The position numbers were made by a program, and so were the translations under genes. A stretch of DNA of 24,331 nucleotides from a virus. Taxonomy: Duplodnaviria > Heunggongvirae > Uroviricota > Caudoviricetes. The notes beneath the pieces are model-generated. The model worked only from the letters and a program-made list of their open reading frames with translations, did not search any database and was not told where the DNA came from. Numbering within the stretch: position 1 is the stretch's first letter; each line of letters starts with the position of its first letter. The stretch lies in the IMG/VR virus record IMGVR_UViG_2778261216_000006. One strand, given 5' to 3'. Of the stretch, positions 1,541-16,535 are shown one piece after another.

Positions 1541-1612
1541 CAAATTGACTACACCATTAACTACACCGTTCGGTGCACTGTATGAAACAACGTGGAACAA
1601 ATAGACACAAGA
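1541..1612. repeat. Left arm-type repeat (ATTGACTACACCATTAACTACACCG ... GAAACAACGTGGAACAA)
   Basis: ~75-bp imperfect direct repeat of 16455-16535; it lies ~70 bp inside the core, as expected for integrase/Xis arm sites. Confidence 0.5.
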
Positions 1613-1898
1613 AATATACAGGCGGGTAATCTTTCCAGGGGGAAGCGCACCAATTCATGAGGGGCGTTAATGTCGATATGGGGATCCCCATAACGGGGCT
1701 ACCGGATTTTTTTTCCGGTTAACCTTTAATCAGGCTGGTGGGTTTTACATACCCTTGATCACCGTAATGATGATCCAGATGTGCACCTTTTCCACCAATG
1801 GCGGAAAGCTCCAACCGTAACGATGATCGCTATGGTTGCCTCGATGGCCTGCGTGGTCATTATGACCATTCAGAATGTGAGGGATGATGTTTCCGCTC

Positions 1899-2305
1899 TC
1901 CTCAAATTGAGGTTACCGGAAATATCAACTACTTAACGATAAACTGGCGAGTAATTAAACTGCGAAAATTTCGTAGCTTGTGACTATCTGAAAGATCGTC
2001 GGTTGTTCCGGCCTCAACCGTTGGCTGTTTCCGAGAATATCAACGGGTTAGCAAAGCGCAATTTTGCACTTTGCTTTAAGTTCAACCAGTTACCGCCAGC
2101 TTCCCCCAATGGGGGATTGTGGAATAATCAACGGTTTAGGCCTTAATCATCTGCGTAAACATAAGTAATCATAATGATCATTCAGCCAGCGCAATTTTGC
2201 GCTTTGCTTTAAGTTCAGCGAGTTACAGCGCCGACTTCCTCAAATTGAGGTTGCCGGAAATATCAACCAGTTACGAGGCTCAAAATTGAGCCGCCTTTAA
2301 ATCAA
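1899..2305. repeat. Structured non-coding repeat region near the island left end
   Basis: No ORF of 60 aa or more; two ~40-bp direct repeats carrying palindrome CCTCAAATTGAGG (1899-1940, 2237-2277), two copies of hairpin AGCGCAATTTTGC(G/A)CTTTGCTTTAAGTTCA (~2056, ~2190), five (A/T)ATCAAC motifs. Confidence 0.5.
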
Positions 2306-2309
2306 CACG

Positions 2310-2591
2310 TTACCGCCGTAACCGCTCCGGCTTCTTCCAGTTGTACGTAATTTTCTCTTTCTCCCTGTACATCTCTACACGGCGATTGTAGGCCAGCATT
2401 TCAAGAACGCGGATCCGTATGTCGCGCATATCCGCATCATTAAGCTGGATACCATCACGGCGCATCACCTCAGCAACAACACGCGCATAATTTTCGGCTG
2501 TCACGCTGTCCGGCTGCGTGGTCTGTTCGTCAGCCTGCTGGCTGATTCCAGAGACGCGGCGGATTAATCGCAGTATTTCGGCTTCTGTCAT
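2310..2591 (-). CDS. Hypothetical protein (93 aa) immediately downstream of terminase large subunit
   Basis: ORF begins 14 nt after the TerL stop with a GAGG ~10 nt upstream; no recognisable family. Confidence 0.5.
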   Translation of the reverse strand: MTEAEILRLIRRVSGISQQADEQTTQPDSVTAENYARVVAEVMRRDGIQLNDADMRDIRIRVLEMLAYNRRVEMYREKEKITYNWKKPERLRR

Positions 2592-2604
2592 GCTGCTGAC
2601 CTCA

Positions 2605-4266
2605 TTACACCCCGCTAAATTCTTCCAGTTTCTGGCGGTGGCTGTCGCTTATATCAAAAGCAAAATCCTCATGCTCTGCCTGGAATGTACCAAACGCCAT
2701 CAGCGCCGCTACGCTCGGGTCTATCTTGTTCGGTGATTTTTTCTTGTTCGGCTTGATATTGGCGTTCGCGTCACTCTGCATCACGACGTTACTCATCGAC
2801 CAGGACAACACCGGATCGCCACGATGCACAATCACCCTGCGGTTAACAAAAACTTCGAACGATTTCGCCGCCGGACTGAATCTGAGGTAGGTTTGCGGGA
2901 ACGGCTCCACCTCAAAACCAGCCCCCTGTAATTGCGTCCTGAGATGCGTGGCGTTCCACGTATCAAAGCCCACCAGCCTGATATTAAATTTCTCCGCATC
3001 CTGCATGATGTCATCTCTGATCCGGTCGTAATCAATGCAGTCACCTGGCGTTGTGCGTATCCAGCCCGCTTTAGCCCACTGGCGATAGACAGCGCGGTTT
3101 TTATTGGCGGGGTTCTGTAGCTGGAACTCCGGCAGATAATGACGGGAAACCAGCATGATATTTTTACCGACCGGAAAGGCATAGCACACGCTGGAAATAT
3201 CGCTGGTTGATGATAAGTCCAGCCCCGCGTAACACTCCTGCCCGTGTAAATCTTCCTCCGTGAACGTTCCGGCACACTCAGCCCATGCGCCGTTACCCAT
3301 CCACGGGGTAGCCCCCTGGCACCAGATATTAAATCGCTTTGTCATCATCTCCACCCATTGCGACGGAATACCCCGCGCTTTCTGGATGGTTGAGGCCAGT
3401 TTTTCACGATCCACGGAAACATCGATGTTAGGGTTAGCCTTTATCCACATCGCCGGATCATCAACCTCGTTTTCGTCGTCCAGCTCGTAAATCAGCACAA
3501 AAATTGAATCGTTGACCTCTTCGCCGTCCAGGATCTGGCAGCAATAATCATAGTGCTGTTTACAGGTTGAAACGACGTTACTGCCCGATGTGGTAATGGC
3601 AAATAACAGCCCTTCGGGACGTGCGCCCATCCCCAGCTCAAGCGCGGAATAAACGCCGTTATCGGGGTGTAGGTGGTATTCGTCCACGATGGAAAGGCTG
3701 GGGTTTGTTCCCTCGATGGTTGCCGCTTTTGCTGCCAGCGGCTTTAACAGGCTGTTGCTTTTCGGGTGCATCACCTTGTGGGCCTGAATATTCACCCGCC
3801 TGCGTAACGGTCGGGATAAAAGGCACATCTGACGCGCATCATCAAAAACGATCCGCGCCTGGTCACGGCTCACCGCTGCGGTGTAAATATCCTGCTGCCC
3901 GTTCTCCATAATCAGAAACCAGTTAGCCAGAATCGCGGCGGTCGTGGATTTCGCATTTTTGCGCGGCACTTCGATAAAGGCGCTCGTGTATTTGCGCCGT
4001 CCGGTGGCCTTAACCTTAAAGCCGAGGATGCACGCAAAGGCGAACTGCTGCCACGGCTCCAGCTCAATGGGTCTGCCACGCATCGGCCCTTTTACGTGCG
4101 GGCACACCCTGGAAAAGGCAATAAACCGCTCCACAACCTCACGATCGAACGTGTAAAGGGGGCTTTCAAGGTCCGAAAAGTACCGTTTAACGGCCTGTTT
4201 CAGCCGTTTACAGGCCGGAATTTTGCCCGTTTTTACGTCTTCTGCGTACTTATTCCAGGCGGTCAA
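2605..4266 (-). CDS. Phage terminase large subunit
   Basis: 553-aa ORF (TTG start in track) with ATPase and nuclease regions typical of HK97-like TerL; start overlaps the TerS stop. Confidence 0.93.
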   Translation of the reverse strand: MTAWNKYAEDVKTGKIPACKRLKQAVKRYFSDLESPLYTFDREVVERFIAFSRVCPHVKGPMRGRPIELEPWQQFAFACILGFKVKATGRRKYTSAFIEVPRKNAKSTTAAILANWFLIMENGQQDIYTAAVSRDQARIVFDDARQMCLLSRPLRRRVNIQAHKVMHPKSNSLLKPLAAKAATIEGTNPSLSIVDEYHLHPDNGVYSALELGMGARPEGLLFAITTSGSNVVSTCKQHYDYCCQILDGEEVNDSIFVLIYELDDENEVDDPAMWIKANPNIDVSVDREKLASTIQKARGIPSQWVEMMTKRFNIWCQGATPWMGNGAWAECAGTFTEEDLHGQECYAGLDLSSTSDISSVCYAFPVGKNIMLVSRHYLPEFQLQNPANKNRAVYRQWAKAGWIRTTPGDCIDYDRIRDDIMQDAEKFNIRLVGFDTWNATHLRTQLQGAGFEVEPFPQTYLRFSPAAKSFEVFVNRRVIVHRGDPVLSWSMSNVVMQSDANANIKPNKKKSPNKIDPSVAALMAFGTFQAEHEDFAFDISDSHRQKLEEFSGV

Positions 4267-4606
4267 GCTCGTCCTCTTCTTCTGTTTCCGGTGGATTTTT
4301 ACGGCGGCTTATCGGGTCAAAACCGAGCAAAGAGGCCATTTTTATCATCACTCTTTCAGCGTCGGATTTTGCGCTTAATGCGGGGTTTCTGCTCTCGCCG
4401 CCCTGACTGTTAACAATGCTGAACCCGCGCGCCGCAAGGTCTGCAACGGCTTTCCGGTAAATGGAGTAGTTGACACAATACAGTTCCAGATTGCTCCAGT
4501 CGGCGGGGGTCAGGTCTCCCCGTTCCGCAAGCTGCCTAGATTTTTCCCGCCACTGCTTCACGGCGATATCATCCAGGTAGGCGGGGGCTTTCGGTGGTCT
4601 TGCCAT
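4250..4606 (-). CDS. Phage terminase small subunit (P27-family-like)
   Basis: 118 aa; LELYCVNYSIYRKA and RNPALSAKSDAERVMIKMASLLGFDP match the small-terminase signature; directly upstream of TerL. Confidence 0.85.
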   Translation of the reverse strand: MARPPKAPAYLDDIAVKQWREKSRQLAERGDLTPADWSNLELYCVNYSIYRKAVADLAARGFSIVNSQGGESRNPALSAKSDAERVMIKMASLLGFDPISRRKNPPETEEEDELDRLE

Positions 4607-4728
4607 GCTTATTTTTCGCCAGATTATTTTTCAAAAAATTCCCGTGCATAAAAATTTGAGGAGGCGTTCGGTGCCCGGCGGGGTCGGGTTTGTCCTGAAA
4701 ACGCCCCCCACCCCGTCATACAGCCTCA

Positions 4729-4911
4729 TCAGCGATTGCGGAAACATTCCATAACCTCGCGGTCACGGTCGGTTAATCGCTTCGCTGTGATGCGTTCTGC
4801 GCGTCCTGACGCTTTATCTTTATGCCCTGTTTCCTGTGTCTTCCATGCGTCACGCTGCCTTATAAGTCCACGGATAAGGCGGTTTTGTTCCCGATCATTC
4901 ATCAGCGTCAT
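4729..4911 (-). CDS. Hypothetical small charged protein (~60 aa) between HNH and TerS
   Basis: C-terminal part of track ORF 4729..5133 lying past the HNH stop (MTLMNDREQNRLIRGL...); the start is my estimate. Confidence 0.35.
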   Translation of the reverse strand: MTLMNDREQNRLIRGLIRQRDAWKTQETGHKDKASGRAERITAKRLTDRDREVMECFRNR

Positions 4912-5335
4912 ACATCCAGTTATTGCGGTTAGCGGCCCGTTCTTCCTCTTCACGAAATCCACCTGCGGCACGCTTGCTTTTTGTTGCCGGATCAAGCCAT
5001 TTCGTTTTCTGGTTATGACACGCCTGACACAATGGTTGATGGTTCCATTCGGGCCAGAAGAGAACATCATCACCGCCATTAATCGGGATAATGTGATCCA
5101 CCACCACGGCGGGCGTATATATCCCCTTCTCAAGGCATCGCACGCATAACGGGTTTTTACTCAGATACATGGCGCGGTATTTGTCCCACTGTCTGGAATA
5201 TCCACGCGCGCGGCGGTGTCCTCGTCTGGCATCCTCTGCACGCCATGCCGCCCGCCTGTGCTCTTCACACTTGCCGGATTTAACGCGCCTGTTACAGCCT
5301 GGTTCTGTGCATCGTCTTAATGGTTGCCACGGCAT
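4895..5335 (-). CDS. HNH endonuclease (phage packaging-associated)
   Basis: 146 aa; Cys-rich N-terminus, VVDHIIPINGG and CQACHNQKT motifs. Confidence 0.9.
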   Translation of the reverse strand: MPWQPLRRCTEPGCNRRVKSGKCEEHRRAAWRAEDARRGHRRARGYSRQWDKYRAMYLSKNPLCVRCLEKGIYTPAVVVDHIIPINGGDDVLFWPEWNHQPLCQACHNQKTKWLDPATKSKRAAGGFREEEERAANRNNWMYDADE

Positions 5336-5631
5336 CAGTACACCCCCACATCACGGTAAGCCGTCCAGAGTGCGCCAATCGTCATGGGTACGCGTGTTTT
5401 TGCGTTATCCGCGACAATCTGGCGATTCTCATACAGGTGAGCGATAAACATCATGCAGCCAATCTTTATGGCTGGCGTGAACTCCAGCCCGTCATCAAAG
5501 CGCCTGCCTATGTGTATCTGGCACGCCTCAAGCGATGCGGCAATGTATCCGCTGATTAACTGGTCTTCCTCGTCGCCATCGATGCGGCAATGGAGTTTCA
5601 CTTCTTCCAGGGTGATAAGTTCTTCTGTCAT
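5335..5631 (-). CDS. gp6-like head-tail connector protein
   Basis: 98 aa; LITLEEVKLHCRIDGDEEDQLISGYIAA N-terminus typical of this family. Confidence 0.8.
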   Translation of the reverse strand: MTEELITLEEVKLHCRIDGDEEDQLISGYIAASLEACQIHIGRRFDDGLEFTPAIKIGCMMFIAHLYENRQIVADNAKTRVPMTIGALWTAYRDVGVY

Positions 5632-6008
5632 TTTTCCGCGCCCTCACGACAAAGAATTTCAAGGCGTGTCCTGGCGGCATCCGGCAGCGGCTGCCCGATG
5701 ATATTCAGTACACGCCCCGCCAGCGGCCCCGTACTGACCTTTATCCGGCTGGTGGCGTTGATGTCCTTCCGGTACCGTATCCAGATCCTTACGGTACCAA
5801 TCGCCAGCTCTGCACCCGATGAAATGGCCTCCTTGCTGCTGACCATGTTCACGCTTGCCCAGAGTGTGTGACCGTCCTCCCACGTTTCGAGTATTTCGCC
5901 GGTTATATCCCTGGTCTGTTTCAGGGTCTGAATCGTTATCCTGTCACGCAGTCGCCCTATGTTCATTCCGGTTTTTCTCCCTCGCTGATTTTTACTTCCT
6001 GTTTCCAT
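5628..6008 (-). CDS. Phage head closure / head-tail adaptor protein
   Basis: 126 aa; MNIGRLRDRITIQ ... VRIWIRYR ... pattern; the true start may be the internal Met near 5966. Confidence 0.78.
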   Translation of the reverse strand: METGSKNQRGRKTGMNIGRLRDRITIQTLKQTRDITGEILETWEDGHTLWASVNMVSSKEAISSGAELAIGTVRIWIRYRKDINATSRIKVSTGPLAGRVLNIIGQPLPDAARTRLEILCREGAEK

Positions 6009-7174
6009 GCCTGGCTGAACTCATCACCACCATCACGCGGTGACAGTCCTTCACGTTCGCGGGCTTCGTTCGGACACATAACGCCGGATTTGATGCCGCG
6101 CTCATAGGTGGCAAAGCGTTCGCCAGGTGTGGCCCGTAACAGGTCCGCGCTGTCAAACTCCACCTGATACCGGATACCAGGTACAGGCGAGGCCACCAGC
6201 AGGGCGTTTTTTATCTGCTGCTCAAAGTTCGCCAGCCACGGGCGCATCGTCATGGTGAGAAATGCGCGGCTTGCCTCGCTGAAATTGCTGTAGGTGCTGT
6301 TGCTGTATTCCTGCAAAAAAATCGGCGAGACGTTGAACATTCGGGCGATGTCTTCAATGGTGAAGCGACGGGAGGCCAGCCATTCAGCATCCTGATTACT
6401 CATGCCCAGCTGCTGATAGCTCATACCCCCTTCAAGGATGGGCGTTTTTCCGGCGTTTCTGGCCCCTTTGTAGCGTTCCAGTGCGGCTAATGCCTGTTTG
6501 CCCTTCACGCCGTCCAGCCATTCGCCTGACGTGATAACCCCTGCCGCCATCATGCCATCACGCATCACGCTCGCGCCGTGGCGTTGTTGGGCCAGCCCAA
6601 GCCCCAGCGATTCGCGGCAGATGGTTACAGGTGAGCGCCCCATAAAGCCGTCATCCGTGGAGTAACGAAGGTGAAGTACTTCCCACGGTAAATAGTTGCG
6701 GGTGTTTCCGGTGTAAGCGTCAGTGATGCAGTAGCGCCAGTTGTGTTCGCCTGTCTGCTCCACGTTCACCGACTGCGGCGGGTAAGGATGTAAAGCCACC
6801 GGAAAACCATCACGCCCCCACTGAATCACCGCATAAGCATTACCGTTTAACAGGCAGTGGCGGATCATCATTCGCTTAAACTGGTAGGGAGTCTGCCACG
6901 CGTTCGGGCGCTCGTTGAGGATGTGATCGACCGGATGAGAATCAAGCCACTCGCGGGCCTCCTTCCCCTTCTCATTGCGTACCAGGTACAGGTAACACGG
7001 CATGGTAGCCACCGCCTCAGAGATGACCGTGACGGCGTTCATAACGGCGGGCAGTGATTCCGCTGTCCCCGATGATACGTACTCACCCGCCCCCGTGTTC
7101 GATGTGCCAGCCAGCGCCATAAACTCATCAAGCGTCATGCTGCGCTGCTCTTTTTTTCTTCTGAAAGGCCACAT
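5963..7174 (-). CDS. Phage portal protein, HK97 family
   Basis: 403 aa; size and conserved blocks of the portal family; lies between protease and head closure genes. Confidence 0.9.
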   Translation of the reverse strand: MWPFRRKKEQRSMTLDEFMALAGTSNTGAGEYVSSGTAESLPAVMNAVTVISEAVATMPCYLYLVRNEKGKEAREWLDSHPVDHILNERPNAWQTPYQFKRMMIRHCLLNGNAYAVIQWGRDGFPVALHPYPPQSVNVEQTGEHNWRYCITDAYTGNTRNYLPWEVLHLRYSTDDGFMGRSPVTICRESLGLGLAQQRHGASVMRDGMMAAGVITSGEWLDGVKGKQALAALERYKGARNAGKTPILEGGMSYQQLGMSNQDAEWLASRRFTIEDIARMFNVSPIFLQEYSNSTYSNFSEASRAFLTMTMRPWLANFEQQIKNALLVASPVPGIRYQVEFDSADLLRATPGERFATYERGIKSGVMCPNEAREREGLSPRDGGDEFSQAWKQEVKISEGEKPE

Positions 7175-7175
7175 A

Positions 7176-7748
7176 TCACACCCCCGCTAAATCCACCCAC
7201 CAGCGGCGATTATCCGCACGCGGCATTTTTTCGGGGTGCTGCTCATACAGGGAACGGCGGGCCAGCTCCACGCCGGAATCGGGGTAAGCCGGTACCGATG
7301 TAACGGTAATTTCGTACAGTTCCGCCACCAGCACGGTGCGCACGCATGGATCTGTTGTGGTATCCCATACATCCTTACGGGAGCGAAAGCCAAAGCTCAT
7401 CCCCGAGATGTCCCCACGCTTAACCAGTTCGATAACGTCGCGCCCTGTACTGGTATCCGGTGGGGTCAGTTCAAAGCGTAACCCTGTTTCGTCCTCTTCC
7501 AGTTTCAGCGTGCCGGAACGGGTGCGCCCCAGTAACATGCTGTGGTCATGCTCATACAGGCCGCGAACGTCATTACCCGCCGCAAGCCATTCAGTAAACG
7601 CCCCCCGCTGGAATTTTTCGTAAAACTCACCCCATAACAGTTCTGAAAGCTTATCCCAGCGAACAACGTAGCCCGTCAGCGTACCGGCTCCGCTGGTGGT
7701 GATTTCCGATGACCGGATTTCCATACTCTTCATAATTTTTTCACCCAT
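7176..7748 (-). CDS. HK97-family prohead serine protease
   Basis: 190 aa; TLTGYVVRWDKLS, HDHSMLLGRT and GMSFGFR blocks. Confidence 0.9.
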   Translation of the reverse strand: MGEKIMKSMEIRSSEITTSGAGTLTGYVVRWDKLSELLWGEFYEKFQRGAFTEWLAAGNDVRGLYEHDHSMLLGRTRSGTLKLEEDETGLRFELTPPDTSTGRDVIELVKRGDISGMSFGFRSRKDVWDTTTDPCVRTVLVAELYEITVTSVPAYPDSGVELARRSLYEQHPEKMPRADNRRWWVDLAGV

Positions 7749-7787
7749 AAAACACTAAAGGGGCTTTTAAGCCCCTTCTGTATGCTG

Positions 7788-8993
7788 TTAATCGTCGTCC
7801 TGTGGCAGTTCCAGAATCTTGATCGCGTTCGAATCCACCACGCCACCGCCTAAATATTTCTGCGTGAAAATTTTGATGAAGCCCGGCTCTGTGAGGTTGT
7901 CCGGTCTGGTGCGAACACCTGTTTCGTGATCAACAATGTAGTAACCGCGTTTGAAGTCACCCAGGGCAATAACGTTATCAGGCATAAACTCCAGATATTC
8001 GACCGGAAGGCCCAGCAACGTATCAGGATCACCCGCCTGTAAACGGTCGCGCCAGATGTAATCACCGTTCGCGTTCTTCACCTTCTGAAGTTTTGCCGCC
8101 GTCGTGGAGTTAACCACCCAGACCGCGTTTTTGCGGTATTTTTTACGTAATGCAAATTTCAGGTCGATCAACGGGTCCGCAGATGTCCACGCCAGAGATT
8201 CGGAAGGTTTAATTACCTGCAACGTACCAAAATCACGCTCTTTGTCGTTCTTCTCTGCACGGGGTACGGATAAAAAACCTTTTGCTTTTTTGTCACCGTC
8301 GCCCACAACCAGATCGCTTTCTTCGGTTTCCGTGAAGGTGTCGCCAATCTCACCCGTCAGCCATGAAAGGATGTCCACATCGGAAAAATCCACGATTTCC
8401 TGTGTGGTGCGCGGGTACGCATAGACCGGATACAGCTTAATGCTCACCTCGTTAATCTGCGGGGTGCTGGTCTGTTCGCGTGTCTTACCCTCTTCACCGT
8501 GGTTAACGGTCGCACCGCCAGCGGAAACAAGCTGCTTAAACTCGTTGCTGCTGATTTTCTTCACGGTACAGATGCGGCGCATGGTGGACTCATCCGCCAG
8601 CATTCGCATGATTTCGGTGTTCAGCTCGGGGATAACGGTATAACCACCATCAGCGGGAACGCCTGTACTTAATGCGCGGGTTTCACCCGTCAGAATGTAG
8701 TTTCGTAGTTCTGCGGGGTCAGTGGTCTGACTGCTTTTACCTGGCTTGCTGCGCTCTTCGTCTGCAATGGCTTCAAGGCGGGAAATGTCTTTATCGAGGG
8801 ATTCAGCTTTAGCGCGTAATTCGTCAAATTTTGCGCCCTCAGCATCGTTAAGACTGCGGTTTTCTTTTTCCGCGTTCTCCAGCATGTCGCGCATCTGATT
8901 TTTAATGGCGGTTTTCTGCTGGCGTAATTCGATTATTCTCGGCATAAAAAAAGTCCTGGGGTTAAGTAAGGAACTCCAGGACGCGGCAAACAC
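7788..8993 (-). CDS. Major capsid protein, HK97 family
   Basis: 401 aa; N-terminal coiled-coil delta-domain-like region, then a conserved HK97-fold body; start (GTG at 8993 or internal Met) uncertain. Confidence 0.93.
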   Translation of the reverse strand: MFAASWSSLLNPRTFFMPRIIELRQQKTAIKNQMRDMLENAEKENRSLNDAEGAKFDELRAKAESLDKDISRLEAIADEERSKPGKSSQTTDPAELRNYILTGETRALSTGVPADGGYTVIPELNTEIMRMLADESTMRRICTVKKISSNEFKQLVSAGGATVNHGEEGKTREQTSTPQINEVSIKLYPVYAYPRTTQEIVDFSDVDILSWLTGEIGDTFTETEESDLVVGDGDKKAKGFLSVPRAEKNDKERDFGTLQVIKPSESLAWTSADPLIDLKFALRKKYRKNAVWVVNSTTAAKLQKVKNANGDYIWRDRLQAGDPDTLLGLPVEYLEFMPDNVIALGDFKRGYYIVDHETGVRTRPDNLTEPGFIKIFTQKYLGGGVVDSNAIKILELPQDDD

Positions 8994-9035
8994 TCAACCG
9001 TTTTTCATAAGGAAATCAGCAATCGCACCGATCGT

Positions 9036-9083
9036 TTTCCCGCCTGGTAATGAATATTGGCGAGCACATTAACAGGCGGGAAA
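9036..9083. promoter_or_regulatory. 11-bp perfect inverted repeat TTTCCCGCCTG / CAGGCGGGAAA with 26-nt spacer in the leader of the capsid operon
   Basis: Read directly; located 45-90 bp upstream of the capsid gene start. Confidence 0.35.
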
Positions 9084-9157
9084 GTGGCCCCAGCGTCCTG
9101 GCACCACGGGCGAGAATAATCATGATTCAGTTCGGGTAAAATATGCCGATCCGCTCA

Positions 9158-9189
9158 GTGAACAACGTGGAACAACCACGAACAAATAA
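9158..9189. promoter_or_regulatory. Dyad motif GTGAACAACGTGGAACAACCACGAACAA upstream of the capsid operon
   Basis: Contains palindrome CGTGG-AACAA-CCACG; near-identical copy, inverted, at 15115-15145; half-sites inside both att arm repeats. Confidence 0.4.
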
Positions 9190-9226
9190 TTTACAAAAAA
9201 TAACAAAAAGCCGGATTGCTCCGGCT
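9190..9226 (-). terminator. Rho-independent terminator (hairpin AGCCGGAGCAATCCGGCT plus T-run on minus strand)
   Basis: Stem-loop followed by TTTTTGTTATTTTTT on the minus strand, just downstream of ORF 9246..9470. Confidence 0.6.
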
Positions 9227-9245
9227 GTATGTGCTGTATGGGTGC

Positions 9246-9470
9246 TCAGTCTCTGATCCCTTTCAGAAATTCTATCAATGCATCTGTCTGTTCAGGATTT
9301 ACTGCCAGCATTTCACCGGATAGCGCGCAACGAACAAAACCATGATGATCCTTTTCAATCAGCGCCCCCGTTTCCAGAAATGCGCGGTAATCAGTGATAT
9401 TCATCGTCTCCATGTTGTCAGCATGGTATTTATCACGCTGTTTAAGTATCTCATCAAATTTCATCGGCAT
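9246..9470 (-). CDS. Hypothetical protein (74 aa), moron-like gene flanked by two copies of the same terminator
   Basis: Internal Met of track ORF 9246..9548, preceded by GAGGAAAACGCA; no family recognised. Confidence 0.55.
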   Translation of the reverse strand: MPMKFDEILKQRDKYHADNMETMNITDYRAFLETGALIEKDHHGFVRCALSGEMLAVNPEQTDALIEFLKGIRD

Positions 9471-9562
9471 TGCGTTTTCCTCTGTTGTGTCTGTTTGTTT
9501 CAGATAGTAACTATGCCGGACCGTGACGAAAAGCCAGTAGTGCTCCATACCGTTTCAAATGA

Positions 9563-9588
9563 CGCAAAAAAGCCGGATTGCTCCGGCT
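9563..9588 (-). terminator. Rho-independent terminator (second copy of AGCCGGAGCAATCCGGCT hairpin)
   Basis: Same hairpin plus T-run on the minus strand, downstream of the PerC-like gene. Confidence 0.6.
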
Positions 9589-9610
9589 GCGTGGTGTGGT
9601 TCTGATATTC

Positions 9611-9859
9611 CTACTCAGCTAATTTGCTCAGCCCCATGTCTGCGTAAGTGCGATTTACTGCATTTCTCAGGTCTGCGTAGTTCTCCGTTGGCGGCTCCGG
9701 TGGCCTCTGTGCCTTCCTGGAACATTCCAGCCGTCGCATCGTAACCTGATGCCGTTCCTTGTCTGTCTCCACCAGTTGCATGACTTCACCCCATCGCGCC
9801 GACGCCCTCCGGTAAAATCCTTTCGCCTCGAGTTCCTCCGCTATGCGGTCATGTACCAT
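9611..9859 (-). CDS. PerC-family-like transcriptional regulator (82 aa)
   Basis: Start at internal Met with strong SD (GAGGGGGTGA); MVHDRIAEELEAKGFYRRASARWGEVM resembles the PerC-family N-terminus (from memory). Confidence 0.5.
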   Translation of the reverse strand: MVHDRIAEELEAKGFYRRASARWGEVMQLVETDKERHQVTMRRLECSRKAQRPPEPPTENYADLRNAVNRTYADMGLSKLAE

Positions 9860-9869
9860 CGTCACCCCC

Positions 9870-10280
9870 TCAGAACGGAATACCGTCACCGTAAGGGTCA
9901 TCGCCTCCCGCTGGTGGCTGATTACCCTGTGTGCCTGTGGTTTTGCGTCTGTTCCCGCCTGGACGTGCCGCGCGGGCACTGATTACGCTGTCTGCAATAA
10001 CCTGATACCCCCGCCGCGTTTCCCCGTTCTGTCCGGTCCACTGGCTTACCTGCATCGTGCCGGATACGCTGGCAACATCGCCTTTTTGATGTTTAGCCAG
10101 GAAATCGGCCTGTTTGCCAAATGCGATAACCGATAACCATAACGTCGCCTGTCCGTCCTGTGCCTGGCTGCATGGCAAAGATACCGCCATACGCGCCAGC
10201 GTCATCGGTGTGCCCTTGCTGGTCTGTTTTACCTGCGGGTCGTCCACCAGCCGCCCGTAAGCCGCTATCTGTGCTGTCAT
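9870..10280 (-). CDS. Single-stranded DNA-binding protein (SSB-like)
   Basis: 136 aa; OB-fold core blocks, Gly/Pro-rich linker and acidic C-terminal tip ending DGIPF; ATGA overlap with the upstream gene. Confidence 0.8.
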   Translation of the reverse strand: MTAQIAAYGRLVDDPQVKQTSKGTPMTLARMAVSLPCSQAQDGQATLWLSVIAFGKQADFLAKHQKGDVASVSGTMQVSQWTGQNGETRRGYQVIADSVISARAARPGGNRRKTTGTQGNQPPAGGDDPYGDGIPF

Positions 10281-10528
10281 GCTGTCTGCTCTCCGGTTTT
10301 AACGTTGATTGTTGTTACCTGTTCCGCTTCGGCAATCTCCCGTTCTGTCAGCGTGGCAAAGTTTGCCGCCGCTGTTGTCATGAATGCGCTTATCAGTTCG
10401 GGATGCTCCTTCGCGTATCCTTCCCCCGCGTGGCGGTCTATCGTTCTGATTGCCACCTTTAAAGCCAGTTCAGCCATATCTAACGCCTTATATTTCGGCT
10501 CTGTTCTGTCTCTGCGTTTTTGGGTCAT
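10277..10528 (-). CDS. Hypothetical protein (start uncertain, 66-84 aa)
   Basis: Track ORF 10277..10558 overlaps the iterons at its 5' end, so an internal Met (10528 or 10477) is the likely start; translationally coupled to ssb. Confidence 0.5.
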   Translation of the reverse strand: MTQKRRDRTEPKYKALDMAELALKVAIRTIDRHAGEGYAKEHPELISAFMTTAAANFATLTEREIAEAEQVTTINVKTGEQTA

Positions 10529-10540
10529 TTCTCGCAACCT

Positions 10541-10730
10541 CTCACTTTTTCGCCTCACTTTTTCAAGCGTCTCACTTCGTCGCAGTTGGGATTTTTGGTT
10601 TTTCTATGTGTGTGTTTCATAAGTATTTTTTTACCCCTCACTTTTGAGGATGTATACAGGTCGAAAAGTGAGGGAGAGCAGGCTAATTTTGGCCCTCTTT
10701 CCACCCCCCTCGCTTTTGCTCCTCACTTTT
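10541..10730. repeat. Iteron array (CTCACTTTT repeats, at least 6 copies in both orientations) with AT-rich spacer: candidate island replication origin
   Basis: Copies near 10541, 10554, 10571 (variant), 10637, 10665 (inverted), 10709 (variant), 10722; immediately downstream of the replication helicase gene. Confidence 0.55.
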
Positions 10731-12138
10731 ATAGCGGCGCTACATCATCCCCATCGATACGAATAACCCCATCTTTTTCCAGCTTGTACAGCCAGCGCCG
10801 GAAGTTTTTCATTTCATACCCCAGTTTTTTCATGTCATCACGTAACAGCGGGATCGTGCACTTGTCGCCGTTCTGTGTGCGTGAACGGATGCACCCCCAT
10901 AGCGCGGTATGGTTTTCCGTCTTGTTCCCTGCCTCCTCGATGCGCTCCAGTTCAACGGGAGGGCGCGGCTTATCCACCACCACCAGCGACGTGATTAACT
11001 CCCCGTCAGCGTCGGTAAAAAGCTCCACCACCCGCAAATCATAGGCAGCCTCTTTGAGTTCCTCCGCGTCCTTCATTTTGGTGCATGAGATAACCAGCGC
11101 TTCGCTTCCTGCGTCCTCCCTGCGTATCCGGTATTCAGCATCCAGTGATGCACGAAATGCACTGGAACCGCGCGCGCCTTTCGTCTCATCCTTGCCGGAA
11201 TGGTGAACCACCAGCACCGTGGCCCCTGTGCGTCGTTTCAGTTCGTCACACCCACGGATAAACGCCCCCATGTCGCGGGAGTCATTTTCATCATTGCCGC
11301 CAAAGCAGCGCGCCAGCGTGTCCAGAATAATCATGCGAACAGGTTTACCCGTTTCCCTCTCCACCTGACTGGCAGCAATAACCAGTTCATCAACATCAAG
11401 CGGGACAGCCGGAAAGATGGGACGGTTTACCAGATACAGATTTTTCACCTGCTCACCGTGCACAACCTCCCAGGCTTTTACACGACGCGGAACGCCGATA
11501 CCGCCTTCACCAACCACATAGAGAACAGCGCCATGCGCCACCCTGCGGCCTCCCCACTGGCGGCCCGTGGAAACGTGACACGCCCACGATCCGGCAAGGA
11601 ATGATTTATAGGAACCGCTCGCCCCGTATATGCTGCAAAGCGACGATGCCGGAATAATCCCCTTTACCACGTAATCAAGCTGTGTGTCGTATCCGGTAGA
11701 TCCAACGCTCATCGGTAGCGTGGTTTTTCGCTGGGGAATTTTTTTCATGACCAGGCTTTCCCCGCGTTCCCATGCCTCCCTAAGCCGTGGAAGCTGGTCG
11801 CTCCATTCCTCCAGCAATTCGAAATTTTCAGAAAGTAGCCGCGCCTCCTGGACTCCGGCGATCGCCAGTTTCGTGGCGATGGTTAACAGCTGCGGCTCTT
11901 CAATATTTCCGGCGCGTATCACCGTCGCCCTGTATCGCCCATCATCAACAATCTGGAGGTTATCCAGTTCGCTTAACTGATAACGCCCCAGATAAACGGG
12001 AGGGACTGGATCGCCTGCTTTTTTGGCCTGTGCAATGATGTAATGCTCTGCGAATGAGTGAGCATCAATACCCGCAAAAATAATCGCATCGGTGTATTTG
12101 TCTTTCGGTAATAGTTTTACGTTCGGTGCCAGTTTCAT
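10729..12138 (-). CDS. Replication protein, RepA-like AAA ATPase/helicase (satellite pri-rep type)
   Basis: 469 aa; Walker A (YGASGSYKSF), Walker B (RMIILDTL), VVHHSGKDETKGARGSSA block. Confidence 0.85.
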   Translation of the reverse strand: MKLAPNVKLLPKDKYTDAIIFAGIDAHSFAEHYIIAQAKKAGDPVPPVYLGRYQLSELDNLQIVDDGRYRATVIRAGNIEEPQLLTIATKLAIAGVQEARLLSENFELLEEWSDQLPRLREAWERGESLVMKKIPQRKTTLPMSVGSTGYDTQLDYVVKGIIPASSLCSIYGASGSYKSFLAGSWACHVSTGRQWGGRRVAHGAVLYVVGEGGIGVPRRVKAWEVVHGEQVKNLYLVNRPIFPAVPLDVDELVIAASQVERETGKPVRMIILDTLARCFGGNDENDSRDMGAFIRGCDELKRRTGATVLVVHHSGKDETKGARGSSAFRASLDAEYRIRREDAGSEALVISCTKMKDAEELKEAAYDLRVVELFTDADGELITSLVVVDKPRPPVELERIEEAGNKTENHTALWGCIRSRTQNGDKCTIPLLRDDMKKLGYEMKNFRRWLYKLEKDGVIRIDGDDVAPL

Positions 12139-12434
12139 TTTTTACCCCTGAATCCGTTAATCATGGTTTTCAGCTTCTGGATGTTTGCCCGTGCCCTGGC
12201 GTTGCTGGTGGGCACGTTATGCGGCGCGGTCTGTACCAGAGAAAAATCACGCCGGAACTGATAAACAGGCATCACGCAATCATATTCGTAACCTTCACGG
12301 CGGTAAGTTACGCACCGTCCCGCCACGCCCTTAATCATTACCATGCCGCCGTACTGGTCGCGGTAAATATCACCGCGCGTAAATTTAGGGTGAGTGTTGC
12401 CACTGGCAGTTAAGCCAGAATATTTAAGTTTCAT
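12135..12434 (-). CDS. Hypothetical protein (99 aa)
   Basis: GGAGA SD ~9 nt upstream; stop overlaps the rep start (ATGA). Confidence 0.55.
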   Translation of the reverse strand: MKLKYSGLTASGNTHPKFTRGDIYRDQYGGMVMIKGVAGRCVTYRREGYEYDCVMPVYQFRRDFSLVQTAPHNVPTSNARARANIQKLKTMINGFRGKK

Positions 12435-12439
12435 TATTT

Positions 12440-12670
12440 TTATTCTCCGGTGTGGGGCGCGTTATTATTTTCGTGAATTGCCATTGCCTTATCCAGTTCA
12501 TCAATAACAGGCGATAGTAATGTCTGAATGGCTGCAAACATTAATGACGAAGATTCTTCGCCAGATTCCGGCACTTCAATTAATTTGCCTAACAACGCAT
12601 TCATTTCCTTTGCGCGGATTAATGCGTTTTCAGAGTGGATTAATACTTCAAAAGGGATTTTATGCATCAC
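12440..12670 (-). CDS. Hypothetical protein (76 aa)
   Basis: AAGGGAG SD upstream; tightly packed in the operon. Confidence 0.5.
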   Translation of the reverse strand: MMHKIPFEVLIHSENALIRAKEMNALLGKLIEVPESGEESSSLMFAAIQTLLSPVIDELDKAMAIHENNNAPHTGE

Positions 12671-12890
12671 AAATTTTCTCCCTTATTCTTTTAATGTCCT
12701 CATTAAGGATGTCTGTAACTTTTATCAGCGAGTTTTTGGCAATTATTTTTATTGTTTTAAGTTTTCTTTTGTCGTGCTCCGACTGTGATTTTCTCTCCAT
12801 GCTCTCCACCATGTGGGTAACATCAACGAGCGCACGTATCAGTATTTGCATTGCTTCTTCTGCTGCGTCCGGTGTGGTTTTATTGTGCAT
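12660..12890 (-). CDS. Hypothetical protein (76 aa), first gene of the replication operon
   Basis: Internal Met of track ORF 12660..12932 with strong SD (AGGGGGAAACCT). Confidence 0.5.
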   Translation of the reverse strand: MHNKTTPDAAEEAMQILIRALVDVTHMVESMERKSQSEHDKRKLKTIKIIAKNSLIKVTDILNEDIKRIREKICDA

Positions 12891-13122
12891 AGGTTTCCCC
12901 CTGGCGAATACGGGCGGCAAATACAGCAACACAACCGGACGGGCAACGGTTACGCGCTTCGCGTTCCGTCCAGGCGGTTACGTGGATGATTTGACGTTCT
13001 GACGCGCCAAAGGCAATAAAGCGCCAGATGTATTTATTCAGGTTGTGCGAGTCCCGCCCTTGCGGGTGTGTGGTATGATTTCTCATAGCTACCTCGATAC
13101 TATTGCTATCGTTGGTGGTTAG

Positions 13123-13156
13123 ACGCCCCGTATGTGTGCCACCACTGCGGGGCGTT
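13123..13156 (+). terminator. Conserved hairpin GACGCCCCG...CGGGGCGTT (copy 1) bounding cassette 1
   Basis: 8-bp GC-rich stem; near-identical copy at 13860-13896. Confidence 0.45.
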
Positions 13157-13167
13157 GCCTTTTGGTG

Positions 13168-13208
13168 CAAGTCACCTTTAAAGGCTATGCTACTTTCAGG
13201 TGACTTGC
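13168..13208. promoter_or_regulatory. 11-bp perfect inverted repeat GCAAGTCACCT / AGGTGACTTGC (operator-like) upstream of cassette 1
   Basis: Read directly; followed by a T-rich tract and TATACT -10-like hexamer (~13241). Confidence 0.4.
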
Positions 13209-13276
13209 ACTTCAAGCCTTTTTTTATTTTTTTTTCTGCGTATACTGAACGCCACCTAACAGTAAGGAGGCCAGTA

Positions 13277-13456
13277 ATGCCAACGGGTACAACCAACAAC
13301 AAATCACAACAAAAAACGGCTAGAGTTCCTCTAGAAGTTTTAAGCGAAATGAATTTGGTCAAAGAAGAAAACGAAACAGACGCGCAATTCATCGTTACAG
13401 CCATGCGCGGCGAAATCAAACGCCGCCAGCGCCGCAAGGCCAAAGAATCAGAATAA
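13277..13456 (+). CDS. Arc-like ribbon-helix-helix DNA-binding protein (59 aa)
   Basis: Strong SD AAGGAGG 6 nt before ATG; RVPLEVLSEMNLVKEENETDAQFIVTAM matches the Arc pattern (P-x-E-V-L ... EEN). Confidence 0.55.
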   Translation: MPTGTTNNKSQQKTARVPLEVLSEMNLVKEENETDAQFIVTAMRGEIKRRQRRKAKESE

Positions 13457-13461
13457 TCACT

Positions 13462-13505
13462 ATCAGCGCCGTGGTGTGAGGAACTCCGGCGCATTGCTTT
13501 ACAGG
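13462..13505 (+). promoter_or_regulatory. Conserved 44-bp intergenic element ATCAGCGCCGTGGTGTGAGGAACTCCGGCGCATTGCTTTACAGG (copy 1)
   Basis: Contains stem GCGCCG/CGGCGC; second copy at 14146-14189 with a single mismatch. Confidence 0.5.
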
Positions 13506-13513
13506 GCAGCACT

Positions 13514-13741
13514 ATGAACGAACACACATCATCACCGGAAAACGGCGAAAGCACGTCAACATATGAAATCATCCGGCAAAGGCAGTCAGAAGCCTGCGCC
13601 AGACTTGAGGAAGAACTAACCAGAACAAAAATACCACCACCAGCGCCGCGCTTAGTGCCACCAGAAAAATTTGCCCTTGAAGATTTTGTCGATAAATACC
13701 CACGGCGGCTTAAATCCGGCAAAAACCGACCGCCAGGATGA
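13514..13741 (+). CDS. Hypothetical small protein (75 aa), partner of the Arc-like gene
   Basis: ATG 9 nt after the conserved element; shares F-A-x-x-x-F-V-D-K-Y-P-R-R block with the 14198..14401 product. Confidence 0.4.
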   Translation: MNEHTSSPENGESTSTYEIIRQRQSEACARLEEELTRTKIPPPAPRLVPPEKFALEDFVDKYPRRLKSGKNRPPG

Positions 13742-13859
13742 GTGCACAAAACCGAACTATGAAACGGATTATTCCGTTTCCGGGGCGTTTGTGTGTGTAT
13801 AAAGAGTAAGCTATGCTCTTTTATAGCCATAATCGTTACCTCAATTAATGGTTTGGTTA

Positions 13860-13902
13860 GACGCCCCGTATGTGTTCCCATCACTGCGGGGCGTTGTTTT
13901 TT
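13860..13902 (+). terminator. Conserved hairpin GACGCCCCG...CGGGGCGTT plus T-run (copy 2), between cassettes
   Basis: Stem followed by GTTGTTTTTTG. Confidence 0.5.
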
Positions 13903-13945
13903 GTGCTAGTTGTGTGTAATGTGTATATACACATAAACACATTAT

Positions 13946-14140
13946 ATGGGTGTAATTGACGTGTCAACACACAAAAATGAAAGGCGTGGTAATCCTCCTT
14001 TCCAGTTCCGTTTAGATCCTGACTTACGGGAAAAGATGGAAAAAGCACAACAACAAGACGGTGATGACTCTTTAGCTGCTTGGATAAAACGAATAATCCG
14101 AAAAGAATTACAGCAACGCGGTATTGAACCCAAAGAATAA
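13946..14140 (+). CDS. Arc-like ribbon-helix-helix DNA-binding protein (59-64 aa)
   Basis: PPFQFRLDPDLREKMEKAQQQDGDDSLAAWIKRIIRKE follows the Arc pattern (from memory); start ATG 13946 or GTG 13961; palindrome ATGTGTATATACACAT just upstream. Confidence 0.55.
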   Translation: MGVIDVSTHKNERRGNPPFQFRLDPDLREKMEKAQQQDGDDSLAAWIKRIIRKELQQRGIEPKE

Positions 14141-14197
14141 AAAACATCAGCGCCGTGGCGTGAGGAACTCCGGCGCATTGCTTTACAGGTACACACA

Positions 14198-14401
14198 ATG
14201 ACCAATAAAGAATCAACCAATACACCATCGCAAAAAACGAACAGAGAGCACGAAAATATGGCGCTCGAGCATGAATCAGAAAGATTCGCTCCATGCGCTT
14301 TTGTCCTTGATGAGTTTCTAAAAAAATATTCACGTTCTGAACGGATGAAAATGGCAGCACAATACGGCCCCAACAAGCAAGGTAATTGCCCACCAGCCTG
14401 A
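14198..14401 (+). CDS. Hypothetical small protein (67 aa), paralogue of the 13514..13741 product
   Basis: Same position relative to the conserved element; shared FxxxxFVLDEFLKKYSR block. Confidence 0.4.
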   Translation: MTNKESTNTPSQKTNREHENMALEHESERFAPCAFVLDEFLKKYSRSERMKMAAQYGPNKQGNCPPA

Positions 14402-14473
14402 TAGCGGCTATCATTCCCGTGCTTATGTTTGGGATCACATACACATAAGGCGCAGCAGGTTAATTGTTCAGAA

Positions 14474-14506
14474 AGGCGGCTCCATATCGGGGCCGCTTTT
14501 TTTATG
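14474..14506 (+). terminator. Rho-independent terminator ending the plus-strand cassettes
   Basis: GCGGC...GCCGC stem followed by TTTTTTT. Confidence 0.55.
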
Positions 14507-14644
14507 CCTGAAAAACCCCAATTTTGTTGTTTTTCAGTTTCACCAGGGCGAACGAATCCCCGCCCACGTTCGGGCGCATATTCAATCTTCATAGTTATAT
14601 CTCTGTATTAGTGGATGTGTGGCGACTGTGTGCCGCCAGTCTTT

Positions 14645-14833
14645 TTAGTGAACTGCCTTGCAGCTATCCTTCCAGGCCAAAACCTCAGATAAAGACCAGC
14701 CAACAGAACGCCCACCAAGTTTACGACGTGATGGGAATTGTCCGGCCTTTTCCAGGCGGTAGCGGCATGAGCGGCTAAGGCCTGTTAGCTTTTCGCATTC
14801 TTTTTCACGTATAAACCGATCAGTGCTTAACAC
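14645..14833 (-). CDS. alpA: AlpA-family phage regulatory protein (Xis-like activator)
   Basis: 62 aa; LSEVLAWKDS-type C-terminus typical of the AlpA family; sits just downstream of the integrase as in PICIs. Confidence 0.88.
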   Translation of the reverse strand: MLSTDRFIREKECEKLTGLSRSCRYRLEKAGQFPSRRKLGGRSVGWSLSEVLAWKDSCKAVH

Positions 14834-14995
14834 TATTGCCCCCTTTCGTTTCTTAAAGAGTTATTTCGTGTTCTATTGCGTTGGGATGTGTCTGATTGTG
14901 TCAGGATGATTCAGAGTTGGCAAATGTTGGTGTCGCATGGTTTACAGAAAGAGGAATAATCAGGATAAAATCATTTAAATTCATGTTAATACAAA

Positions 14996-15030
14996 GGCAT
15001 AAAATCTTGTTTTATGCCTTTTTTCGCACG
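14996..15030. terminator. Hairpin GGCATAAAA-TCTTG-TTTTATGCC with flanking T-run between int and alpA
   Basis: 9-bp perfect stem followed by TTTTTT on the plus strand; weaker T-tract on the minus strand. Confidence 0.45.
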
Positions 15031-15114
15031 CTTTAACGCGTAATTCACTAATGTATAAAAAACCAGTCACACAAATAAAATCAGTCACTTATAAACCTGC
15101 GTACTTTTTCGCCT

Positions 15115-15145
15115 CTTGTTCGTGGTTGTTCCACGTTGTTTCACA
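15115..15145. promoter_or_regulatory. Inverted copy of the GAACAACGTGGAACAACCACGAACAA dyad motif
   Basis: Reverse complement matches 9158-9189 over ~28 bp; ~70 bp downstream of the int stop. Confidence 0.4.
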
Positions 15146-15207
15146 TTGTTCGCCGTTGTATCTGTGTGCTTATCCAGTATACGCATACTGAAAAAACACG
15201 AAAAAAA

Positions 15208-16458
15208 TTATTTTCTTCTGGCTGCTGGTAGTGCGGTTACGTTTTCATGTGTTCCCGCCAGTATCCCTAACCGCTCCGTCCACATATCCAGCGCATTGCG
15301 TTTAGCATCCAGATAACGGGAATGATTATAAACTCGCTGCATTCCTGGCATCTGGTGGCCTGTAAGCTGCTCCACGACGTGCGGATCAACGCCTAAATCG
15401 TTCAGCATGGTTGTAAAGGTGCGCCGGATGTCATGCAGTGACCAGTGAGGGTGTTTAAGCCTCCTGTGCGCTAATCTGCCGTACTGCGACACGCTGGTTT
15501 CCTGTTTCACTTCCCCCAGCAATAAGCCCGTGTGCCTGTTCTGCTCCACCAGCTGCGTGATGAACGGCAGTATCGCTTCCGGTATGGGCCGGAATATGGC
15601 TACCTTCGTTTTACTGTGCTCCTTCGGAACGGTCCAGAGCATTTCGGTAAAATCCCACTCGCCGATCTCAGATAACCTAAGTTCGACCGTCCGGCATCCG
15701 AACACAATCAGGAGGCGGATTAGCGCGATGTAGTAGGGGGAGAATATTTTTTTGTCCAGTGCCTGCAATAATTCGCCAAGTTCTTTGTTGCTTAAGACAC
15801 GCTCGCTTATATCCGGTTTTTTCCCAACGTCAGCCACACTCATATCATCAAGAACGTTGCTGATTGCATAGCGCCGCTTCCTGCAGAACTTAAGCGCCTG
15901 CTTGCATGTCTGTAGCAGGAACCCGGCGGAAACAGGGGCTTTCTTTGCCACCCGATCAAAACAGGCCAGCCAGTGCCGTAGCTCGCATTTATCCAGCGGC
16001 ATAGGGCCAATGTGCTGTATTACGTGATTATTTAGCCGCTTTTTCAGTGGGTCATAATCCACACGGTTTTCCTTTGCGTACGACTCAAGCCAGTAGGTGA
16101 GCGCATCGCCAACCGTTACAGGCTTTAACGCTTCCTGTACGGAGTAATTCATCTCATGGCGTGGATTTTTCCCTTCTGCCAGCCATGCACGACACTGGGC
16201 GGCTTTTTCCCTGGCTGATTTCAGGCTCAGATCAGGATAATTTCCCAGCTTAATGCGTTCCGGTGGTGCCCCCCTTCCCGCTCCGGCCCTGTAAGTGAAA
16301 TACCAGGTTAAAAGGCCGCTGGTTGAATGCCTGACACTCAGGTTTCCACCGTCATTAAGAAAGGCTGTTTTTTGGGCGGGTGTGCCGTTGATTTTCCTTA
16401 GCTGTGTATCGCTCAGTTTGTTAAGTGCTCTGCTCATAATTTTGAATCCGGTCATCAC
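15208..16458 (-). CDS. int: Tyrosine recombinase/integrase, P4-like family
   Basis: 416 aa; N-terminal arm-binding-like region, catalytic-domain blocks (HDIRRTF, LGHQMPG-type); start codon uncertain (GTG 16458, ATG 16455 or 16437). Confidence 0.94.
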   Translation of the reverse strand: MMTGFKIMSRALNKLSDTQLRKINGTPAQKTAFLNDGGNLSVRHSTSGLLTWYFTYRAGAGRGAPPERIKLGNYPDLSLKSAREKAAQCRAWLAEGKNPRHEMNYSVQEALKPVTVGDALTYWLESYAKENRVDYDPLKKRLNNHVIQHIGPMPLDKCELRHWLACFDRVAKKAPVSAGFLLQTCKQALKFCRKRRYAISNVLDDMSVADVGKKPDISERVLSNKELGELLQALDKKIFSPYYIALIRLLIVFGCRTVELRLSEIGEWDFTEMLWTVPKEHSKTKVAIFRPIPEAILPFITQLVEQNRHTGLLLGEVKQETSVSQYGRLAHRRLKHPHWSLHDIRRTFTTMLNDLGVDPHVVEQLTGHQMPGMQRVYNHSRYLDAKRNALDMWTERLGILAGTHENVTALPAARRK

Positions 16459-16535
16459 AATTAACTACACCATTAACTACACCGATCGTTGCACAAAGGG
16501 CTACAACGTGAAACAAGCTGGAACAAGAAAAATCA
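16455..16535. repeat. Right arm-type repeat (ATTAACTACACCATTAACTACACCG ... GAAACAAGCTGGAACAA)
   Basis: Direct repeat of 1541-1612, between the int start and the attR core. Confidence 0.5.

Follow-up and report, generated by a model that had tools for sequence, protein, structure and literature searches.

Packaging sites of related phages and satellites

The cos site of lambda is laid out as cosQ, cosN and cosB. Its ends have 12-nt 5' overhangs, no HNH endonuclease is involved, its TerS is gpNu1, and cosB is IHF-assisted. The same three-part logic, with an upstream element, a cut site made by staggered nicks and a downstream TerS binding region beside the TerS gene, appears to recur in the locus described here, although the lambda TerS is unrelated and there is no sequence similarity.

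Closer comparisons come from the Shigella phages SfI and SfV and from HK97. For SfI, run-off sequencing of virion DNA in comparison to the prophage left a 10-nt gap, 5'-TGCCCGCCCC-3', which was taken to be the cohesive end (PMC3636060). Since the run-off reads show a gap and not an overlap, we infer that the overhangs are 3'. The cos regions of SfI and SfV are one base apart; the SfV record ends, after the HNH gene, in GAGGGGAGGGGCGGGTCAAATCTCTGTGACCTGACGTCT and starts with TCCGGACTGCCCGCCCCATCGTTTTTTTATACCCGCGAAAAATGAAAT, followed by terS. HK97 cos has a 10-nt 3' overhang, and the minimal site for its TerS runs from +15 to +29 and includes a T-tract at +24 to +29 (PMC11331095). The HK97 record ends in GGGCAGGGGGGGGGATCAAATCTTCAAAACCTTTGCCCCAAATGACCGCCGCCAAA and starts with GTTTGAATTTAACGCTAACCCGATTTTTTTAG. 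The published numbering (T16, A:T pairs 24–29; PMC11331095) fits that record, and so the cleavage point is the record junction. The HNH protein of HK97, gp74, is encoded upstream of cos, and cleavage is HNH-stimulated.

The third point of reference is the capsid-forming PICIs (cf-PICIs), a recently described and widespread family of satellites whose hallmark is the exclusive packaging of their own DNA. Proteobacterial cf-PICIs carry capsid, protease, portal and connector genes followed by hnh, terS and terL (bioRxiv 10.1101/2022.09.08.507074), and the definition of the group includes having no tail or lysis genes (bioRxiv 10.1101/2025.02.11.637232). For KpCIDSM30104, which like EcCIEDL933 comes from the Penades laboratory, He et al. 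describe DNA concatemers joined through cohesive cos ends (bioRxiv 10.1101/2025.02.11.637232). In the literature we found cos packaging and cohesive ends stated, and no published cos map for any enterobacterial cf-PICI.

The island and the gap upstream of terS

The DNA analyzed here, called the window, is the whole 24,331-nt stretch of IMG/VR record IMGVR_UViG_2778261216_000006. The element in it is a cf-PICI satellite of E. coli, located between phoQ and roxA, and is no phage; the initial annotation had argued from HK97-like genomes, but in gene content, gene order and size the element agrees with the published definition of cf-PICIs. A 21-nt direct repeat brackets the island (Table 1) and makes it 14.9 kb long; the repeat-to-repeat unit of 14,916 bp is therefore also the predicted cos-to-cos packaged length. 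Besides this size, the island has an integrase, PerC, SSB, an AAA_25 replication protein and the full head and packaging set, as in cf-PICIs, and neither family search nor annotation gave a tail or lysis family among its ORFs. Nearly all of its genes are on the minus strand.

Table 1. Features of the island and of the gap upstream of terS, in window coordinates.
Feature	Position	Strand	Remarks
phoQ	1-1461	+	recognized from translation
Island	1548..16484	-	bounded by 21-nt direct repeat ACTACACCATTAACTACACCG at 1548-1568 and 16464-16484, putative att core
93-aa ORF	2310-2591	-	after TerL
TerL, ATPase + nuclease	2605..4266	-	PF03354 + PF20441
TerS, P27/Terminase_4 family	4250..4606	-	PF05119, E 1.3e-23
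Block R, A/T-tract element downstream of predicted cut	4623..4660	-	CTCAAATTTTTATGCACGG + GAATTTTTTGAAAAATAAT; mean pairwise identity of halves 0.87, 0.78
Predicted 10-nt cohesive end, cosN equivalent	4661..4670	-	CGAACGCCTC on minus strand, GAGGCGTTCG on plus strand; identity 0.78
Spacer, variable sequence, fixed length	4676..4688	-	mean pairwise identity 0.37
Block L, G-run element upstream of predicted cut	4689..4714	-	GGGGTGGGGGGCGTTTTCAGGACAAA; mean pairwise identity 0.76 (26 sequences)
60-aa ORF, function unassigned	4729..4911	-	phrog_3173, E 5.5e-36, full length; RefSeq hypothetical WP_000174068
HNH endonuclease, packaging accessory nuclease	4895..5335	-	PF01844, E 1.8e-8; phrog_144, E 8e-45
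Head-tail connector	5335-5631	-	
Head completion protein	5628-6008	-	
Portal	5963-7174	-	
Prohead protease	7176-7748	-	
Major capsid	7788-8993	-	
Replication/regulation module		-	AAA_25 replication protein, SSB, PerC; after integrase on minus strand
Integrase	15208-16458	-	
roxA	from 16677		beyond right-hand repeat

In kind of element, gene order and size the island is like EcCIEDL933 and KpCIDSM30104, and the gap architecture of KpCIDSM30104, whose sequence is that of vB_KppS-Ant, is the same as the island's. The island nevertheless represents another E. coli sublineage. Identity of its TerS is 84% with the Klebsiella element and 81% with a contig from an EDL933 lysate, DNA identity in the packaging region is about 70%, and the replication and regulation module (AAA_25, PerC, SSB) and the phoQ-roxA location set it apart from both. 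The same series of genes occurs in the closest RefSeq relative, E. coli 2012C-4502, at another chromosomal site, between allC and allE. Of 5426 complete E. coli genomes, 515 contain the hnh-terS stretch. Copy numbers of the terS family can be unusually high for a satellite, with nine loci in one Pasteurellaceae genome (Pasteurellaceae bacterium Macca) and two in Symbiopectobacterium.

On the minus strand the genes are met in the order HNH, 60-aa ORF, gap, TerS, TerL. Family matches bear out the identification of HNH, TerS and TerL as neighbors of the gap, all on that strand, with the 60-aa ORF intervening between HNH and the gap. This small ORF shares 17 nt with the end of hnh, and its C-terminal residues FRNR* stay the same from genus to genus while the codons change synonymously. 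SfV, with no more than about 58 nt beyond its HNH stop, lacks a counterpart. The protein may serve cf-PICIs specifically as an accessory factor in packaging.

The gap itself is 122 bp of intergenic DNA (4607–4728), from the stop of the 60-aa ORF at 4729 to the TerS ATG at 4606, and it is sharply divided in composition. The stretch 4661–4717 is 72% G+C in a window of 51% G+C, and only 0.23% of 57-nt windows match that richness; the TerS side, 4607–4660, is 30% G+C and falls in the lowest 1.5%. The two strings quoted in the initial annotation are found on the plus strand at 4663–4695 (GGCGTTCGGTGCCCGGCGGGGTCGGGTTTGTCC) and 4702–4715 (CGCCCCCCACCCCG), and coordinates and composition scan agree that a G/C-rich block separates the HNH gene and small ORF from TerS. 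The block had been described as lying in an otherwise AT-richer region. That is accurate for the 54 nt beside TerS and inaccurate elsewhere; the contrast is a local one because the neighboring genes are 50–58% G+C.

Conservation, mapped cos sites and particle DNA

Regions upstream of terS were collected from IMG/VR loci and from one genome per species, giving 26 aligned sequences from more than 20 genera. These include E. coli, Klebsiella, Citrobacter, Enterobacter, Kosakonia, Kluyvera, Pluralibacter, Erwinia, Pantoea, Rosenbergiella, Serratia, Photorhabdus, Symbiopectobacterium, Aeromonas, Testudinibacter, Aggregatibacter and Pasteurella. From Enterobacterales to Pasteurellaceae the gap is kept as two blocks at a fixed spacing, with no indels. 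Read along the minus strand, the consensus is GGGGTGGGGG-AG-GTTTTCAGGACAAA (block L), 13 variable nucleotides, GGCAC, the decamer CGCCCGCCCC, then CTCAAATTTTTACGCACGG-TGATTTTTTTGAAAATAA (block R) and about 20 variable nucleotides up to the terS ATG.

The mean pairwise identities of the blocks (Table 1) can be set beside those of the adjacent sequence. The stretch just before the terS ATG is at 0.45. Over terS codons 8–100 in the same genomes, identity is 0.83 at codon positions 1 and 2 and 0.48 at position 3. Judged from these alignments, the blocks in the gap are under strong purifying selection, about as constrained as the positions that determine amino acids. Constraint of this kind together with the fixed spacing is the behavior of a protein–DNA recognition site. 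The A/T-rich segment 4623–4660, which had been treated as mere background to the G/C-rich tract, is itself conserved and forms part of the site.

The decamer of the window, CGAACGCCTC, departs from the consensus CGCCCGCCCC at 3 of 10 positions, while the blocks on both sides of it match the consensus. Among E. coli copies with identical TerS, the decamer is polymorphic, occurring as CGAACGCCTC, CGACCGCCTC and CGACCGCCCC. This polymorphism fits a cut that is placed by geometry from the flanking sites and not by the sequence of the decamer. The off-consensus decamer could instead be a sign that the site is a decayed relic in an island that no longer packages, and decay does occur in this family: in Shigella flexneri SFBU1023 (CP182556.1), a 98-nt deletion between two CCCCGCC repeats has cost the copy its predicted cohesive end as well as block R and the start of terS, leaving a natural cos-less, terS-less derivative. 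We nevertheless regard decay in our island as very improbable. Every ORF for packaging and for the capsid is intact in the window and has its full length, the flanking blocks are those of the consensus, and many E. coli genomes share this variant of the gap, at several chromosomal locations, which speaks for recent mobility.

The junctions of the window, the Klebsiella element, the EDL933-lysate contig, an Aggregatibacter element, SfV and HK97 align by MAFFT without gaps from block L to block R. In this alignment window positions 4670–4661 fall in the columns of the SfI decamer and of the final 10 nt of HK97. The mapped end of SfI, TGCCCGCCCC, and the cf-PICI consensus CGCCCGCCCC agree at 9 of 10 bases. 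In both SfI/SfV and the island, cos lies between hnh and terS and is made up of a G-run block, a spacer of the same length, a C-rich decamer and A/T tracts; the G-runs of SfV, GGGGAGGGGCGGGTCAAATC, and of HK97, GGGCAGGGGGGGGGATCAAATC, align to block L at the same distance from the cut. The surroundings differ. SfI and SfV are complete 37–38-kb tailed phages with the order terS-terL-portal-protease-capsid, whereas the island is a 14.9-kb satellite with the head genes upstream of hnh and with the decamer CGAACGCCTC, and the sequence downstream of the cut is ATCGTTTTTTTATACCCGCGAAAAATG in the island versus CTCAAATTTTTATGCACGGGAATTTTTTG in SfI/SfV.

At the protein level, SfV TerS is 36% identical to that of the island (E 4e-21), the HNH protein 37%, and TerL 30% over 558 aa (E 4e-82). 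HK97 gp74 is 39% identical to the island HNH protein, and HK97 shares with the island both the G-run block at the same distance and a C-rich decamer before the cleavage point. The T-tracts are also similarly placed: counted from the cut, which in cf-PICIs is the predicted one, that of cf-PICIs is at +23 to +29 and that of HK97 at +24 to +29(30), a shared span of about +22 to +30. HK97 TerS (gp1), on the other hand, has no detectable similarity to the island TerS and no Terminase_4 match. Because these two proteins are not similar in sequence, a residue-by-residue transfer of the HK97 TerS–DNA contacts was dropped.

Information on physical ends comes from record LR881103.1 (vB_KppS-Ant, 16,548 bp, linear), a SPAdes contig of particle DNA from a lysate of K. 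pneumoniae DSM 30104 (PMC8006926). It is filed as an "Escherichia phage", in fact being a cf-PICI of K. pneumoniae DSM 30104, and its annotation calls a 2.3-kb ORF after terL a tape measure protein. The paper calls the element a filamentous ssDNA prophage, gives >99% identity to the host genome and describes no re-ordering of the contig (PMC8006926). The gene map runs cos-to-cos, with terS and terL first, the integrase in the middle, and capsid through HNH and the small ORF last. The contig crosses the att junction, going from the terL side into int, and is therefore not chromosomal contamination. Its first base lies 22 nt ahead of the terS ATG, and its last bases are ...GGGGTGGGGGAGGTTTTCAGGAC. 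In the chromosome of K. pneumoniae ATCC 13883, which we take to be the same strain as DSM 30104, the two contig ends are separated by the 69 nt GAACACGAGGGCGCCAGGCACCACCCGCCCCCTCAAATTTTTTCGCACGGTGATTTTTTTGAAAATAAA, and there are 0 mismatches over the 2409 nt and 2876 nt that flank the missing segment. An end comparison found no terminal overlap in the contig. The missing 69 nt correspond to window 4691–4623, and the decamer CACCCGCCCC is nt 22–31 of them.

A linear molecule with unique ends whose extremes were under-sampled by library preparation fits this picture exactly at the level of the assembly. The break could in principle also be a dropout of coverage in a G/C-rich homopolymer region, and taken at face value it leaves an uncertainty of 69 nt in the position of the ends. 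A second record, PQ569648.1 (Klebsiella phage P12620-1, a 106.5-kb "complete genome"), closes with a related cf-PICI in cos-to-cos order at 90,64x–106,503, which begins at terS codon 2, where it is joined to unrelated DNA, and breaks off 2 nt short of the stop of the small ORF; the rest of the record is unrelated and the whole is probably an assembly chimera. It fits ends in the gap, but at a resolution too low to count as a second end-mapped record. No contig end falls at the site among the IMG/VR loci found with TerS and the motif CTCAAATTTTTDYGCRCRG. Nearly all of those many loci are prophage predictions from isolate genomes; they are silent on physical ends and served only to show sequence variation. 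A metagenome scan with a 28-nt motif found 47 contigs, 0 of them ending at the predicted cut. One metagenome contig, ERZ1023299.94 NODE_94 (15,632 bp, 454x coverage), has the cos motif internally and is probably a highly induced or circularized cf-PICI in that sample.

The same particle contig bears on whether the island might be packaged by headful (pac), or from somewhere else such as the repeats at 1899–2317, in which case the gap would be some other binding site. This is a very unlikely alternative in our estimation, even though 1899–2317 holds dispersed, palindrome-containing repeats and has two occurrences of the block R 9-mer CCTCAAATT, which is present in 3 copies in the window versus 0.37 expected. 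The vB_KppS-Ant contig is unbroken downstream of terL and through att, the gap being its sole break, which also speaks against the suggestion that the ends might map to the repeat region at 1700–2300. The contig is also without the terminal redundancy expected of headful DNA. Cohesive ends are reported for the relative KpCIDSM30104 (He et al., bioRxiv 10.1101/2025.02.11.637232), and HNH-terS-terL modules are tied to cos packaging in those passages of bioRxiv 10.1101/2022.09.08.507074 that cite Kala 2014 and Quiles-Puchalt 2014. Each of the repeats at 1899–2317 contains a short palindrome (TCCTCAAATTGAGGT, AGCGCAATTTTGCGCT, CCCCCAATGGGGG), and the group follows the 93-aa ORF, close to the end of the island; similar palindromes are found between block R and terS in Pasteurellaceae islands.

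A gap directly upstream of terS might also be conserved for the transcription of terS-terL and not for packaging, acting as a promoter, as a structured 5' leader, or as a terminator or attenuator that follows the head genes. There are TTGAAA-like hexamers in its A/T-rich part, yet a consensus scan of the gap gave no terminator-like site and no minus-strand promoter, the only promoter-like match being on the plus strand. The minimum-energy RNA fold of the gap pairs G-rich with C-rich runs, but it is no better than that of shuffled sequence (z = -0.93), and Rfam has no match anywhere in the window. A transcriptional function would also leave the particle-contig ends and the homology to mapped cos ends unexplained. 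We consider it improbable, if slightly less so than decay or headful packaging, and only partly exclusive, in that a promoter could coexist with cos. The hairpin between the G-run (4700–4708) and the C-run (4660–4668) was rejected as a conserved structure, as relatives are non-compensatory and have A, T or C opposite G.

Proposed action of the site and its significance

Three independent lines of comparison, the alignment to mapped cos sites, the ends of a relative's particle contig and the purifying selection on non-coding blocks, support the reading, already put forward in the initial annotation, that the gap at 4607–4728 is the cos site of the cf-PICI in this island; from sequence comparison we put the probability at about 85%. 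The further expectation that the G/C-rich block holds the cut site is supported as far as the predicted cohesive end at 4661–4670 is concerned, with the qualification that this lies at the TerS-proximal edge of the tract and not in its middle. We infer one minus-strand nick just after 4661 and a second nick on the opposite strand at a distance of 10 nt, with positions good to about ±2 nt, which would leave 3' overhangs. This prediction leans on SfV, whose TerS has 36% identity to that of the island, and on HK97, whose TerS has no detectable similarity to it.

By analogy, block R is the proposed TerS binding site, equivalent to cosB. Block L has a cosQ-like position on the last-packaged side and may have the role of cosQ. 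Since HK97 has this block as well, despite an unrelated TerS, we suggest that it is read by the conserved TerL/HNH pair.

There is also an imperfect inverted repeat at 4628–4644/4685–4701, 71% complementary and including TTTTCA...TGAAAA. Its center, 4664.5, is 1 nt from the center of the predicted 10-nt overhang. A count on the HK97 record sequence found the equivalents there not centered likewise, and the TTTTCA/TGAAAA dyad was not retained as a general feature.

The packaging cycle would then run as follows. A helper phage would induce the island, leading to excision at the 21-nt att repeats and replication. The island's own TerS would bind the A/T-tract element at 4623–4660, just downstream of the cut, and TerL with HNH would nick the two strands 10 nt apart in the decamer at 4670–4661 (CGAACGCCTC) to generate 3' cohesive ends. 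The terS-terL end would enter the small, island-encoded capsid first. Packaging would proceed for about 14.9 kb to the next cos of the concatemer, where block L (4689–4714) and the cut site would be met and the DNA cut again.

The site lies where a specialist would expect it, and its comparative definition at the base level is a modest addition. The exclusive packaging that is the hallmark of cf-PICIs must have its basis in the cos site together with the TerS that acts on it, and a base-level prediction with conserved and variable parts is a direct target for experiments. The 19–28-nt signature also finds cf-PICI islands in genomes and metagenomes. More tentatively, and with rather less than even confidence, the G-run block, fixed spacer, C-rich decamer and CTCAAATTTTTAYGCACGG-N-T-tract might be one signal throughout the cf-PICIs of Enterobacterales, Aeromonas and Pasteurellaceae, of common descent with the cos sites of SfV/HK97 type. 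If that were true, the upstream G-run block would be a recognition element of the TerL/HNH pair and not of TerS, the exclusivity of satellite versus helper would rest on the few positions of block R that differ from cos of the SfV/HK97 type, and cf-PICIs of distant hosts could package each other's DNA.
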